Assembly: GCA_964016885.1 (NCBI GenBank)
Contig: OZ024765.1
Coordinates: 11,842,001-11,906,000 of the forward strand
Origin: Eledone cirrhosa
Lineage: Eukaryota
Direction of reading: 5' to 3'
Length of the DNA: 64,000 bases
The notes under the pieces are model-generated. The model searched no databases, had not been told where the DNA came from, and worked only from the letters and a program-made list of their open reading frames with translations. The position numbers were made by a program, and so were the translations under genes. Positions 859 to 60,637 of this stretch are shown here, in pieces. The stretch's first letter is position 1; each line of letters begins with the position of its first letter.

Positions 859-980
859 TATTAATATTCAAAAAACTACATTTATTGTATTCAGCCATGT
901 AGAGCAAAATTTTCTTTTTTATATATATATATATATATTTGTTTTGGAGTAGGCATTACAATACAACGGGAGGATACAAA

Positions 981-1034
981 ATAGTACCATTGAGGATGTC
1001 ACAGATGTGTGACGAAAGAACTTTGATAGACTAT
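981..1034 (+). ncRNA. Degenerate type I hammerhead-like motif (family H3) in a TA-flanked island (~940-1215)
   Basis: ttgagga-t-gtcaca-gatg-tgtgac-gaaa-gaac-tt. Homologous to the 12444-12488 copy; core position C3 is changed to U. Confidence 0.45.
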
Positions 1035-1217
1035 ATATATACATATTTATATCTGTATTTTTAACCATTGGTATATTGATTGCCAGATAAATTAACTATG
1101 GAGATATAAAAGATACAGAAGCGAAAACCAACCCAAACCAAACAGTGAGTGTGTTGTTATTATTTCTGGCAATATTATAACAATATGATCCTCCCCAAAT
1201 ATAACAATATATATATT

Positions 1218-1440
1218 TACTCAGCTGTAGAAATGAGATGATAGGGGCTGGGGTCCCTATCATTCCACTGCAAAGTGGTCGTGGAGGTGCCACGGCAAAA
1301 AAGCACCCAGCACTCACTGTAAATGAGGTTGGTGTTAGGAAGGGCATCCAGCTGTAGAAATCAAGCCAGAATCAGTTCCCGTCCCACCCTTGCAAGCAGG
1401 GAAAAGTGGACGTAAAATGAAATGATGATGAAATGATGAT
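1218..1440 (+). mobile_element. SINE family B, 5'-truncated
   Basis: Near-identical to the 3' two-thirds of 54815-55154; ends in (GAT)n. Confidence 0.8.
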
Positions 1441-2149
1441 ATATATGTATATGTTTATATTTGTGTGTGTGTGATTATATATATATATGACACAGCTAAG
1501 GTCAACACTAGGAGAGAAAGAAAGAAAACTACAGACAAAAATGTGAACTGTTCTCCCTATATATATATGTATGTAAAGAAAATGTTTTCCCATATTCTTA
1601 TTGTTCTTATTAATATACAATTTAATTGCATTATACACTTCTGTCGTATGAAGAGGCCTACAAGCTGAAACAGGTACAAATAATGTGGAAATTCCTATTT
1701 TGTAAATAAATGTTTTGCTATTATTCTGAGAGAAAATCCCTTTAGCATTTTCTACTGTTTTTTTTTTCTTTTTTACTATTATATAAATATATATATATAT
1801 TGTAGGTCGACTTTGCTTGCCCACAGCCAAAGCTTCGATTTTACTAAGCTTCCAATAGTGTGTATGTATATATATATATATCATAGATTTAGTTAGAAAC
1901 TCAAAAATAGTCGTGTAATATAACTCAAAAAGAGCCGTGTAATATAATTGTGTATATGTATATATATATGTGAGAAAAACCACAGACCCTCCATCTCAAC
2001 TCTACTTTTGAAAAGCAGAAGAACTGCGAAACCGGTAAAGGAACCAAATAAATATATATATTTTTTAAAAAAATAAGACTCCAGTTGCATTTTTGATTTC
2101 ATCTTTTTTTCTTTATACTTTCACTCGTGTAGGACACCTCGGTTATTTT

Positions 2150-2742
2150 TCATTTTGTAAAAAGCTGGACTAATCTTCTTTAACCATCCTTGGAAACTCT
2201 TTGAGATAGTACCTAGTGCTCCTATGACAACCGGGACGACCTTGATCTCATAACAGTCCCAAATCCTTTTTAACTCCCACTTTAAATCCTCAAATCGGTT
2301 AATTTTCTCCCTCTCCTTCTCTTGCACTCTTGTGTCAAAGGGACAGGCTACATCTACAATCAGGCATGATCTTTTTTCCTTGTCAAAAACCAACAGGTCA
2401 GACCTATTGTGTTCTAATTTCTTGTCCGTCTGTATCCTGAAATCCCACAGCACCTTCACCTGATCGTTTTCTATCCCTGACTCTGGCTTATGCTCATACC
2501 ACTTCTCAGAATGTGGTAAATTGTTTACTCTGCATAGATACCAGTGAATCACCTTTCCTGTTATATCATGTCTCCAGCCATTATAGTGAGTCTGGGCTAG
2601 CTGTTTACACTCGGATACAATGTGAGCCACAATTTCCTCTCTCTTTCTTTCCACAGATCCTACACAGTGAGCTAGCCTCCTCCTTGTCAATATGGTGTTT
2701 CACCCACTTCGTTCTGAGGGCCTGCTCTTGCGCAGCCATTAA
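2150..2742 (-). pseudogene. Non-LTR retrotransposon relic, R4/Dong-like: CCHC zinc knuckle plus restriction-like endonuclease
   Basis: Translation reads LMAAQEQALRTKWVKHHIDKEEASSLCRICGKK, frameshift, EIVAHIVSEC...WRHD...LWDFRIQTDKKLEHNRSDLLVFD...IVDVACPFD...VVPVVIGALGT. The typical NRPD motif appears as NRSD. The 5' junction abuts (TAA)n. Confidence 0.85.
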
Positions 2743-56444: not shown

Positions 56445-57279
56445 TATATATATATATATATATCACGACATAATAAACTCCCTGTTTGCAACTAGTTCAT
56501 TTTGTTTAGTTTTTATCTAAATTATTATTGTTTTTGCTGTTTATATTGGAGGGAGGAGGGGGGAGCAGCGGGGGGGGGGGGGGTCTGAAGCAAAAATGGT
56601 TTCACTGGAATAAACGTGCAACAGATTGAATTAATAGGATATGTGGTGGTGGTGGTTGTGGTGATGATGGTAGTGGTGATAGTGGCGGCGCTGGTGGTGG
56701 TGGTGGTGATGGTGGTTGTGGTGGTGGTGGTGGTAGTGGTGGTGGCAGTGGTTTTGGCGGTGGGGGTAGGGGTGGGGGTGATGGTGGGGGTTGTGGTTGT
56801 GGTGATGATGGTAGTGGTGATAGTGGCGGCGCTGGTGGTGGTGGTGGTGGTAGTGCTGGTGGTGGTGATGGTGGTTGTGATGATGGTGATAGTAGGGTTG
56901 GTGGTGGTGGTGGTGGTTGTAGCGGTGGTGTGGTGGTGGTAGTGGTGATGATAGTGGTGGTGATGGTAGTAGTAGTGATGGTGGTAGTAGTAGTACTAGC
57001 AGTAGTAGCAGCAGTAGTAATAGTAGTAGTAGTAGTAGTAGTAGTAGTAGGAGCAGCAGCAGCAGTAGTAGTAGTAGTAGTAGTGGAAGTTGTATATACA
57101 ACAAAAAATTCCAAGAAAAATGGGAGACTATATAAACAGCATCATATTGTGTCACAATGAAACCAGAACCCCCACCACTACCAGAAGTCTCAATCCCCCC
57201 CCCCCCCCCCAATATATATATATGATTGATATGTGTATATATATATATGTGTGTGTGTATATCTATATATACATATATC

Positions 57280-57446
57280 ACACTGTAAACGTGGTTGGTG
57301 TTAGGAAGGGCATCCAGCCGTAGAAAACCCGCCAGACAGTCCTATGCAAGCAAGTCAACCACTCTTGCCTCAAGTGGGAAAACTCCCGTCCAAACCCATG
57401 CAAGCGTGGAAGATGGACGTTAAACAATGATGATGATGATGATGAT
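57280..57446 (+). mobile_element. RTE-tailed SINE 3' fragment
   Basis: cactgtaaacgtggttggtgttaggaagggcatcc...ggacgttaaac..(gat)n. Confidence 0.75.
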
Positions 57447-58570
57447 ATGATATATATATATATGATATATATATATATATGATATATATATATATATATC
57501 ATATATATATATATATATATATATATATGATATATATATATGATATATATATATATATATATATATATATGATATATATATATATATATATATATATATA
57601 TATATATATAATATATATATATATATGATATATATATATATATATATATATATGATATATATATATATGATATATATATATATATATCATATATATATAT
57701 ATATCATATATATATATATATATCATATATATATATCATATATATATATGATATATATATATATATATATATATATATATGATAGATATATATATATGAT
57801 ATAGATATATATATGATATATATATATCATATATATATATATGATATATATATATATGATATATATATATATATGATAGATATATATATATGATATAGAT
57901 ATATATATGATATATATATATCATATATATATATATGATATATATATATATGATATATATATATATATATCATATATATATATATATATATATATATATA
58001 TGATATATATATATATATGATATATATATATATATATATGATATATATATATATATATATCATATATATATATATATATCATATATATATACATATATCA
58101 TATATATATATATATGATATATATATATATATGATATATATATATATATGATATATATATATGATATATATATATATATATATATATATATATATATATA
58201 TATATATATATATATATATATATATCATATATATATATAAGATCAAAAGATGGTTAAAAGAGTTCCATGTATTTTATTATGCGCATTTCAAAAACAAATA
58301 TCATCATGCAATAACATTTGTGTTTTCATCAGATAAAATAGGAAGACATGATATGAAGGTTAAAGAACACTTGTGAATACACACGCATTTGTACATACAT
58401 ACATACGTACATTTGTGAGTGTATATACATACATATACACACACCTAACTATATTTCCTTATATTTTTTTTATATATTTTATATGTCTATTGCATTACTT
58501 TTATTTATATATATATTTTTTTTTTGGCATTTCTTGAGGAGACTTTCCAAATATTTCACTATGTTTTATA

Positions 58571-58646
58571 TTGCCTCGTCCGACGAACGAATGAGGACGT
58601 TTCTTTCGTATTCGTCTTATTCGGGAAACCTCTGGTAATGAGGTAA
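58571..58646 (+). ncRNA. Type I hammerhead candidate (family H4)
   Basis: ttgcctcgt-CCGACGA-a-cgaatgaggacg-[13 nt]-cgtcttattcg-g-GAAA-cc-tct-gg-TA-atgaggtaa; 9-bp stem I with G-U pairs, GUA triplet. Confidence 0.6.
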
Positions 58647-60637
58647 TTATATTGTATTGTTTATTATACATTAAATTTTGCTCTGGTACTTACATAGAGC
58701 ACTCTTCACTCCTATGACTTCTTCAATTTTCAATGGAAACTTCAATACTTATATATATATATATATATATATATATATATATATATATATATATATATAT
58801 ATATGATACCGATGGAATACCAATGAAGGTTGGAAAATCACTGATGAAGGACTATTTTTATCATATGTAACCCATGTGCAACCACGCAGTATTCGATTCT
58901 TCTCATGTTTTTTATATATATGATATGTATATATATATATATATGATATATAGGATACGTATGTATATATAAATATACACACACACACACACACACACAC
59001 ACACATACATATATATATATATATCGTATTTATATATGATATATATATATTTACAAACATTCACAAAACACTTGGCATATTCCCATGAAATATAACATCA
59101 TGGATATATATATACATATATATATATACATATACGTATATATATATATACATATATATACATATATATATATATATATATGTGTGTGTATATATATACA
59201 CACACTCGCACACATATATATATGTATATAATATATGTTATATTTATGTGTATATATATATATATGTATATATTTCCAATGATTGAAAGAAATATGACAA
59301 AGTATGATCCTTCCTTACCCCCCCCCCCTCCCCCCCCCCCCCCTCATTCCATCCTTCTATATATCATTCTTTCTTTCTTTCTTTCCTTCTTAATTCTACA
59401 TTCAAACATTTTTTTTTTCTATTAATTTGCAAACTTTTTTTTTTTTAACTTTGGGAATTTTTTTTTAAACCGGAAAATTATGTTTATTATAAATTTCCTC
59501 CTCCTCCTGCTCCTCCACCTCCACCTCCTGCTCCCCCACTTCCACCACCTCCCCTCCACCACCTCCTCTCCCTCACATGCAGGTATCAAATATTGCAGCA
59601 CAACAATACCAACAACCGCCAACCCACCCCCACCAACAACAACAACAATAACAACAACAACAGCAACAATAACAACAATACCAACAACAACAACACTAAA
59701 AATACCAACCACTACAACAACAACAACAACAGGAACAACAACTACAACAACAACCGCCCACCCAACAACAACAACAACAACAACAACAACAACAACAACA
59801 AATACTGTTGTGATTGTTGTTGTTGCTTTTGGTACTGTTGATATTGTTGTTGTACTTTAGTGTTGTTGATGTTGATATTGTTGTTGATGTTGTTGTACTT
59901 TAGTGATGTTGATGTTGTACTTTAGTGTTGTTGATGTTGTTGTTGTTGTACTTTAGTGTTGTTGTTGTTGTACTTTAGTGTTGTTGATGTTACTGTTGTT
60001 GTTGTTGTACTTTAGTTTCCAGTGTTGTTGTTGCTGTTGTTTGTATTGCTGTTATTAGATATCACATATCACATTTGTGATGTTTTTTTTATTGATGTTG
60101 ATGTTACTGTTGTTGTTGTTGTTGTTGTTGTTGCTGTTGTTGTTATTGCTGCTGTTGCAGTTATTGCTGCTGCTGTTGTTGTTGTTATTGCTGCTGTTGT
60201 TGTTATTGCTGTTGTTTTTGTTATTGCTGCTGTTGTTGTTGTTGTTGTTATTGCTACTGTTGTTGTTGTTATTGATGCTGTTGTTATTGTTGGAAAAGCC
60301 CTACTTTTCTAATGGACAGCTAAAAAAATCAATGACAAAGCCACCACCACCTTCAACACCATCACTACCACCACAACCACTACCAACACTACCAACACCA
60401 CTACCAACACCACCACCAACACCAACATCAACACCACTACCACCATGATCAACACCAACACCACCACCACTATCACCACCACCACCACTATCACCACCAC
60501 AACTATCCCCACCACCACCACCATCACCATCACCACTACCAAAAGACAAGCCACCATTTATCAATGAAACCCAGAGGAGAATTTTGACATGGAGACAAAA
60601 GGAATTATAATGCTTAATATTCTATTTTAGATATTTC

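Follow-up and report, generated by a model that had tools for sequence, protein, structure and literature searches.

The 64,000-nucleotide stretch of the Eledone cirrhosa genome considered here (contig OZ024765.1, positions 11,842,001–11,906,000; the window) holds many short islands that are flanked by (TA)n and appear to carry type I hammerhead ribozymes, which raises the question of what these islands are and how they came to lie within TA repeats. The original prediction named 12 sites in six families (H1–H6) and took them for truncated or non-autonomous copies of diverse hammerhead retroelements. The reading favoured here, at a probability of about 0.8, is that the islands are the 5′-truncated 3′ ends of at least six hammerhead-bearing Penelope-like families, with copies stopping at two fixed points before (TA)n, likely through priming on both target strands.

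A type I descriptor run over both strands of the window gives seven matches with the strict CUGANGA core (at 256, 7140, 11695, 12483, 25333, 25711 and 58332) and nine if variant cores are allowed (adding 11851 and 58580). The corresponding means in 200 dinucleotide shuffles in 200-nt blocks are 0.03 (maximum 1) and 0.235 (maximum 3), and none of the 200 shuffles reaches the observed counts; an earlier, tighter descriptor gave 4 matches against 0 in 10 shuffles. Hammerhead folds in the TA islands, as originally proposed, are well above the shuffled control. The nine matches combine the CUGANGA, GAAA and NUH elements with stems I–III and an open stem I, an arrangement absent from four truncated copies among the named sites. 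These sites divide into six complete folds (7132 and 25703 of H1, 11691 of H2, 12444 of H3, 58571 of H4 and 11844 of H5), two that are near-complete or degenerate and four with the 3′ half only, so the claim of a fold at each of them stands in full for the first six and fails for the last four, which lack half of the catalytic core. The 12444 fold lies on the minus strand and has one additional base after A9; the 58571 and 11844 cores read CCGACGA and CAGAAGA, respectively. At 44319 (minus strand) a CCGAAGA core and a palindromic helix III accompany a stem I of just 3 bp, and 981 is a decayed copy with a TTGAGGA core and an interrupted stem I. At 39072, 6160, 44012 and 44660 the GAAA, helix III, cleavage site and stem I′ are present, the CUGANGA half having been removed by 5′ truncation; longer H6 copies elsewhere in the genome retain it. 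Three further hammerheads, at 256 (minus strand, H9), 25333 (plus strand, H10) and 58332 (minus strand, H8), add to the original list, from which the retrozyme-like elements at 256 and 25333 were missing.

The composition of the window invites the suspicion that such motifs are chance matches in AT-rich, repeat-rich DNA. It is mostly simple and short interspersed repeats, TA runs by themselves making up 14%, and the AATAAA visible beside H1, H2 and H5 is common anyway in DNA of this kind. The proposed comparison with the Rfam Hammerhead_1 model (RF00163) gave a divided answer: the motifs went unreported in two window stretches scanned alone, and a whole-window scan, dominated by microRNA models hitting TA repeats, has no window motif among the 150 of 624 matches listed, whereas elsewhere in the genome RF00163 scores above its cut-off at 18 places, all belonging to one family absent from the window. 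The shuffle control and the conservation of the motif in multi-copy families, at the expected position relative to an open reading frame (ORF), refute the chance explanation, against which the 18 places also count and the probability of which is negligible.

A first look at the 3.0 Gb assembly produced 2211 candidates for H1, 2287 for H2, 2043 for H4, 1704 for H5, 2538 for H6, 3516 for H9 and 2735 for H10, figures that are rough and should not be read as numbers of copies. For H1, H2 and H4, the top copies have 95–99% identity to those in the window. The loci analysed were the best-scoring matches, and H3 copies were drawn from loci fetched for other families. Core states are characteristic of each family: H1 has CTGA-N-GA in 105 of 116 full copies, with a palindromic helix III; H3 has CTGAAGA in 14/20, with the additional base after A9; and H6 has TTGA-N-AA, the U3-A8 variant, in 10/10 full copies. 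In H1 and H6 N7 varies while the remaining core positions hold. U4C is the majority state in H2 (CCGATGA in 22/44, CTGATGA in 11/44) and H4 (CCGACGA in 34/38), as is U4A in H5, where CAGAAGA is found in 69 of 83 copies and a CUU cleavage site in 73 of 83. In the window H2 copy, the canonical core may have arisen from the U4C state by CpG decay. Stems change compensatorily between subfamilies (H1 versus H8, and within H3), as judged by eye.

The minimal hammerheads of metazoan Penelope-like elements described in PMC4209133 are similar in being of type I with a short palindromic helix III, in occurring as single dispersed motifs from truncated elements and as opposite-strand pairs, and in showing both the extra base after A9 and the U3-A8 core, the latter in Schistosoma. 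They differ in that here H5, H6 and H10 have a long helix III and may fold as monomers, and in that U4C and U4A are majority states. The family-wide extent of the U3-A8, U4C and U4A variants is a new detail.

Profile searches found no Penelope-like ORF in the window, confirming the reported lack of reverse transcriptase (RT) and GIY-YIG frames there; extension of the islands into other copies, a step that the original prediction had proposed, locates such ORFs upstream. At an H1 locus (L008) the end of an endonuclease-like ORF precedes the hammerhead. A search with this end returned 150 scored matches among 60,292 candidates, and the extended loci contain an RT marked by DKT and YRDD, together with a CxCX5C linker and CxxC/CxH motifs. 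A profile built from 60 of 120 homologs was used to place ORF ends relative to the hammerheads. The end lies 1.06–1.46 kb upstream in nine distinct H1 loci (0.72 kb in one), 1.1–1.2 kb upstream in 4/30 H2 loci, 1.25–1.44 kb in 8/30 H4 loci, 0.93–1.25 kb in 14/30 H5 loci (0.67 kb in one) and 0.8–1.2 kb in the H6 loci L126 (both arms) and L187. Tandem copies have ORF starts 257–356 nt downstream of H2 and H4 motifs, and an H4 unit (L236) consists of a hammerhead, a full-length frameshifted ORF and a second hammerhead, the motifs being 3.38 kb apart.

These ORFs combine an RT with a GIY-YIG endonuclease at the C-terminus in a single frame, seen over its full span in H1, H2 and H4 and from the RT to the end in H5 and H6. 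H1, H2 and H4, the families for which N-termini were read, have DKT and, at the place of the N-terminal RWK, RWR or RWT. The CxCX5C linker is present in H1, H2, H5 and H6 and in 113 of 120 homologs, and is unclear in the H4 copies examined. All five endonuclease ends lack CCHH and have CxxC and CxH flanking a conserved E and N; their identity is 31–40% among H1, H2, H4 and H5 and 37–38% between H1 and H6. The distance from RT3 to the MG motif of RT4 is 60–63 residues in at least 101 of the 120 homologs, and the fingers contain no insertion. DKT, RWK, CxCX5C, CxxC and CxH without CCHH are the marks of the Hydra clade as set out in PMC8557442, and two further Hydra traits, a (TA)n preference and a hammerhead, are also present. 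On the strength of these motifs, H1, H2, H4, H5 and H6 are very probably the ends of ORFs of Hydra type. Pfam gives no meaningful family for them (PF26215 is listed for most relatives in the homolog table), and the closest named relatives of the RT of one element are Octopus vulgaris predicted proteins with 71% identity.

The resemblance to the published clade extends to the C-terminal GIY-YIG domain, the position of the hammerhead near the 3′ end and the (TA)n targets (PMC8557442). Hydra-1_Obim of Octopus bimaculoides, with which the H4 ORF shares distinctive stretches by eye, is recorded with both (TA)n preference and hammerhead (Files S1 and S2 of that paper); this combination is therefore already on record for an octopus. 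The E. cirrhosa elements differ in that at least five families with 31–40% endonuclease identity occur in one genome, compared with one listed for octopus, in their 3′ untranslated regions (UTRs) of 1.0–1.4 kb, in tails of about 70–100 rather than 30–40 nt, and in their family-wide core variants and common tail hairpin. A 2026 O. vulgaris repeat annotation (PMC13282606) counts recently active Penelope-like families; the terms Hydra, hammerhead and ribozyme are absent from its main text.

The lack of an ORF in the window would equally suit named islands that are non-autonomous retrozymes or units resembling short interspersed elements, spreading as small hammerhead-processed circles, and two elements that do resemble retrozymes, H9 and H10, lie in the window (see below). 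In other copies H1–H6 run unbroken into RT/endonuclease ORFs, which refutes this explanation for them. Their 5′ ends are also scattered: 7 of 316 copies start within 3 nt of the cleavage site, compared with about 11 expected from local density. The explanation is accordingly very improbable for the named islands, and the label 'non-autonomous' is dropped for H1–H6, which are truncated ends of ORF-bearing elements. The wider proposal of diverse hammerhead retroelements lying as truncated copies in TA tracts is borne out, six families having been traced to Penelope-like ORFs.

The sixth of these, H3, leads to a different ORF. Its motif lies 218–226 nt downstream of this ORF in 4/7 extended loci, and the subfamily closest to the copy at 981 is also located downstream of an H3-type ORF. 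The ORF contains DKSG, a Cys linker whose gap is short and a C-terminal endonuclease with C-C-H-H, and Pfam GIY-YIG scores above its cut-off in it. These features recall Nematis, including the linker of CX2-5CxxC type (49/54 of the H3 homologs that have an endonuclease) and its short gap, mostly of 7 residues. The RT is where the two part company. RT3 to RT4 spans 127–131 residues in 62/70 H3 homologs, an insertion of about 70 residues, compared with about 58–60 in Penelope/Nematis, about 80 in a Naiad and about 115 in human TERT, as counted by hand from the published alignment (Fig. S1). The H3 ORF thus breaks the Nematis rule of no finger insertion and is not assigned to that group.

A structure model of one H3 homolog (P0121) has a mean pLDDT (predicted local distance difference test) of 83.9 and is confident across the insert; its top 14 structural matches are all TERT (Z 13.3–14.7, root-mean-square deviation 3.4–4.6 over 270–382 residues), although TERT is the expected best structural match for any Penelope-like RT. 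It is possible, at somewhat less than even odds, that H3 represents a clade not yet described whose endonuclease is C-terminal. A separate observation is that a short word resembling AAGATGGCG is conserved among H3 copies (window 939–981 and loci such as L224:5330-5345), about 60 nt upstream of their hammerhead, which word we take, presumptively, to resemble a YY1 site.

The manner in which the islands end bears on how they were inserted. Each of eight families examined (8/8) has two sharp 3′ ends, an inner End1 and an outer End2, 55–100 nt apart. (TA)3 begins within 6 nt after End1 in 240/260 copies and after End2 in 234/305, compared with 12/79 for other break points and 812/22300 (3.6%) for random non-TA positions, so the TA flanks described at the outset are real and well over background. 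Many copies are arranged head to head: of 164 such pairs, 139 could be classified, and 133 of these combine one End1 with one End2. If the 64 pairs from two-armed queries are set aside, 100 pairs remain, 82 of them classifiable, and 77 follow the same rule (p = 6 × 10−18 against 0.5). These 77 divide into 38 in which the End1 arm has the greater 5′ reach or its End2 partner is tail-only, 6 in which the End2 arm has the greater reach, 28 with equal 5′ extent and 5 that extend past the reference. In 13 pairs the arms have no sequence in common. Most junctions are flush to within a few bases, and at End1 the eye picks out short AT matches with the target.

A tail on one of two inverted repeats is already known from Penelope-like elements, and head-to-head repeats in rotifer Penelope elements have been read as self-priming on an antisense template (PMC3846280). 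Fold-back self-priming, on such a template or on the first cDNA and with later loss of sequence from the middle of the palindrome, accounts as well as two priming events do for the 28 pairs of equal 5′ extent, and the median arm lengths (72 for End1 and 137 for End2), which differ by about one tail, also speak for it; later central deletion could also yield unequal arms. Fold-back from a cDNA started at End2 nevertheless predicts an End2 arm reaching at least as far 5′ as the End1 arm, and the opposite is found (38 versus 6, p = 9 × 10−7). Pairs without sequence common to both arms, and outer ends that both lie in TA at fixed points, are likewise difficult to reconcile with it. We consider fold-back unlikely. 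The direction of the arm asymmetry fits better with two priming events on one RNA, and priming of reverse transcription on both strands of the target is, with fair confidence, the probable mechanism.

Biochemical work on Poseidon PAc, an Anolis element, offers a close parallel (PMC11167929): in vitro, reverse transcription has two start sites on the RNA that delimit the tail, cutting and extension affect both strands of the target, and the hammerhead is dispensable for insertion. No strand difference in start site was seen there, whereas in the genomic pairs described here the two sites are used one per arm in 77/82 cases. In the scheme that we propose, the element endonuclease would nick TA tracts, and the RT would start on both nicked strands; since (TA)n is self-complementary, either strand could be nicked and serve as a primer. 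Synthesis would begin just 5′ of a hairpin in the tail for one primer, giving End1, and at End2 for the second, which probably uses the same RNA. The two cDNAs would halt early and then be joined by their 3′ ends. As a separate observation, single TA tracts can hold stacked copies from more than one family (window 11437–11920 and 44013–44833; L299:1000-2300), so that older insertions apparently provide target sites for younger ones.

The hairpin to which this scheme refers is a bulged structure of the form RCTC-NN-(loop)-N′N′-NN-GAGY that starts 5–12 nt into the tail in all seven non-H3 references; these include H7 and H8, the Hydra link being demonstrated for the other five. It is intact in 155/198 full-tail copies, and is found in 0/19 H3 copies and in 1–5 of 2000 shuffles per family. 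H10 and an H2 subfamily, neither of which was used to define the motif, also have it; the H9 tail has no match. The window contains 7 occurrences, compared with a mean of 0.645 (maximum 4) in 200 shuffles. In an alignment of nine hairpins 54/54 cells are paired and three of six pairs vary on both sides, counts that lean in favour of the hairpin because the alignment was built from the motif itself. The hairpin may position the enzyme, a role that we put forward tentatively. Literature searches turned up no account of the hairpin, of an H3-type insertion or of twin priming by such elements, which is weak evidence of absence given that subscription papers and Repbase were poorly covered.

Two short TA-flanked islands outside H1–H10 (window 10921–11028 and 45015–45084) have the tail hairpin and are probably the ends of further families. 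H7 (loci L061–L078, e.g. G000:C28:57836450-57836494) is absent from the window. Its hammerhead is canonical and passes the RF00163 cut-off; the family also has two fixed ends, a tail hairpin and an AT-rich upstream region of more than 1.1 kb. An endonuclease piece in L078 was considered as part of H7 and the link was withdrawn; a possible ORF link in L229 includes 770 nt without support.

What the hammerhead contributes is a separate matter. The scarcity of 5′ ends at the cleavage site indicates that cleaved RNA is not the usual template, and cleavage was rejected as the event that sets the template 5′ end. Trimming of a tandem or read-through precursor RNA is most likely the role of the predicted ribozyme. 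Families with a short palindromic helix III (H1, H2 and H8) would use it in dimeric form and those with a long helix III (H5, H6 and H10) as a monomer, and it would be dispensable for insertion. A further possibility is that cutting has been lost and that the hammerheads persist, as relics or passengers, only within an enzyme-bound terminal repeat. The U4C state of most H2 and H4 copies, the U4A core and CUU site of most H5 copies and the indifference of copy 5′ ends to the cleavage site would all suit such relics, as would the weak cutting of minimal hammerheads in vitro (PMC4209133) and their dispensability for insertion in vitro (PMC11167929). Maintenance of the core and three stems across families whose endonucleases are only 31–40% identical is harder to explain in this way, as are the compensatory U3-A8 core in all ten H6 copies and the compensating stem changes between subfamilies. 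Loss of cutting is therefore judged improbable, and precursor trimming is retained as the predicted role.

H9 and H10 stand apart from the families discussed so far. H9 forms tandem units of 358 and 372 nt, with one hammerhead each, in 2 of 20 loci (2–3 of the 20 being tandem overall), and H10 has a 634-nt tandem unit in L293 and read-through junctions in 4/20 loci. Neither has an ORF of its own in the 20 loci inspected for each: the ORF that precedes H9 in L280 is part of an H5 copy, and those that face H10 in L295 and L299 are part of adjacent copies of H3 type. Both consist of tandem units a few hundred bases long that lack an ORF and contain a single type I hammerhead, and in this they fit the animal non-long-terminal-repeat (non-LTR) retrozymes derived from Penelope-like elements (bioRxiv 10.64898/2026.07.22.740005), from which they differ in being mostly dispersed in (TA)n with element-type ends. 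Non-coding tandem monomers of this kind set them apart from H1–H6, which have ORF-linked copies. The read-through copies of H10 contain the tail hairpin of the Hydra families, which points to its helper. The combined proposal of programmed twin priming at two RNA sites set by a clade-specific hairpin, of a hairpin that lets ORF-less retrozymes use Hydra enzymes, and of H3 as an undescribed clade with a telomerase-like finger insertion is offered as a conjecture, somewhat less likely than not.

Two side observations concern the same elements. An abundant short repeat (window 560–874, 16524–17493, 26101–26689 and 32453–33168), which also forms tandem arrays of 82–195 nt, is often inserted in H9 at one TTAATATT-containing spot (L270, L277, L279, L280 and L285). 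Four H10 matches about 39.5–40 kb apart in G000:C4:352063137-352182380 suggest a large tandem duplication or an assembly repeat.

Several observations weigh against the overall interpretation of the islands. Five of the 82 classifiable pairs violate the End1 and End2 rule, and some growth of the TA tracts may postdate insertion. The hammerhead shape does not stand out among minimum-energy folds (z from −2.74 to +0.32). None of the fetched copies has an intact ORF, all having stops, frameshifts or truncations, and the choice of best-scoring matches as loci over-represents young copies. The Hydra assignment was made from motifs and by-eye comparison with published alignments, and the H4 unit of 3.38 kb exceeds the usual length of less than 3 kb for Hydra, an excess attributable to its long 3′ UTR.

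The first element in the window is an H9 inverted pair (73–919; hammerhead 215–264, minus strand), apparently ORF-less, retrozyme-like and interrupted by other repeats, and is followed by the decayed H3 subfamily copy (939–1206, plus strand; hammerhead 982–1033), whose relatives have a CTGAYGA core and lie downstream of an H3-type ORF in L295 and L299. An H6 insertion (6161–6268) consists of a tail-only arm (6168–6207, minus strand) and a forward arm (6208–6268) with the 3′ half of the hammerhead only. The 5′-truncated H1 copy at 7061–7240 (plus strand; complete hammerhead 7132–7196, palindromic helix III) stops at the inner end. An H2 copy (11426–11781, plus strand; complete hammerhead 11691–11737) has a short inverted tail piece at its left, and the adjacent H5 insertion (11799–11920, plus strand) combines a tail-only arm (11799–11845, minus strand) with a forward arm in which the variant hammerhead (11844–11898) has a U4A core, a CUU site and a long helix III. 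The H3 inverted pair at 12294–12740 has a minus arm running to the inner end, with the hammerhead at 12444–12488, and a plus arm running to the outer end. H10, apparently ORF-less and retrozyme-like, occupies 25319–25660 (plus strand; hammerhead 25327–25406), close to an H1 subfamily copy at 25700–25810 (plus strand; complete hammerhead 25703–25767).

In the right-hand part of the window, an H6-related insertion (38501–38633) has a tail arm on the minus strand, a hairpin at 38547–38570 and a diverged 3′ half of the motif, and an H1 subfamily fragment (39066–39135, minus strand) retains the hammerhead 3′ half only. Two H6 inverted pairs, also with the 3′ half only, lie at 44013–44200 (tail hairpin 44129–44152) and 44661–44833 (tail hairpin 44709–44732, minus strand). 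Between them, an H2-related subfamily copy (44270–44632) has a minus arm carrying the hammerhead with the 3-bp stem I (44320–44364) and a plus arm with the far tail end, identified by eye. An H8 copy (58227–58379, minus strand; complete hammerhead 58270–58340) has a layout like that of H1 and a different palindromic helix III, and the H4 copy at 58523–58749 (plus strand; hammerhead 58570–58647 with the U4C core, tail hairpin 58680–58700) reaches the outer end. Apart from these elements, ORF fragments at 2121–2699 (minus strand) and 26616–27236 (plus strand) have no Pfam match and look like pieces of non-LTR retrotransposons. Long CAC-rich minisatellite arrays with 42–126-nt periods (13461–15761, 22710–24533, 35171–36342 and 52578–54239) give rise to long low-complexity open frames.

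Penelope-like elements with hammerheads, Hydra elements in (TA)n and one Octopus family that unites these features were already known. What is new is the pair of sharp ends with one used per arm, the covarying bulged hairpin and the core variants, the rest being mostly known. The H3 lineage conflicts with the statement that elements with a C-terminal endonuclease lack a finger insertion, and the families together provide natural variants of the hammerhead core, some of them with a stable helix III and others lacking one. On the origin of inverted ends with a one-sided tail, the thousands of young short copies in this genome, drawn from many divergent families, give countable rules. Two ends, one per arm, next to a hairpin make both the twin-priming model and a candidate RNA signal directly testable, and programmed twin priming, if true, would explain the long-noted presence of a tail on only one of the inverted repeats.

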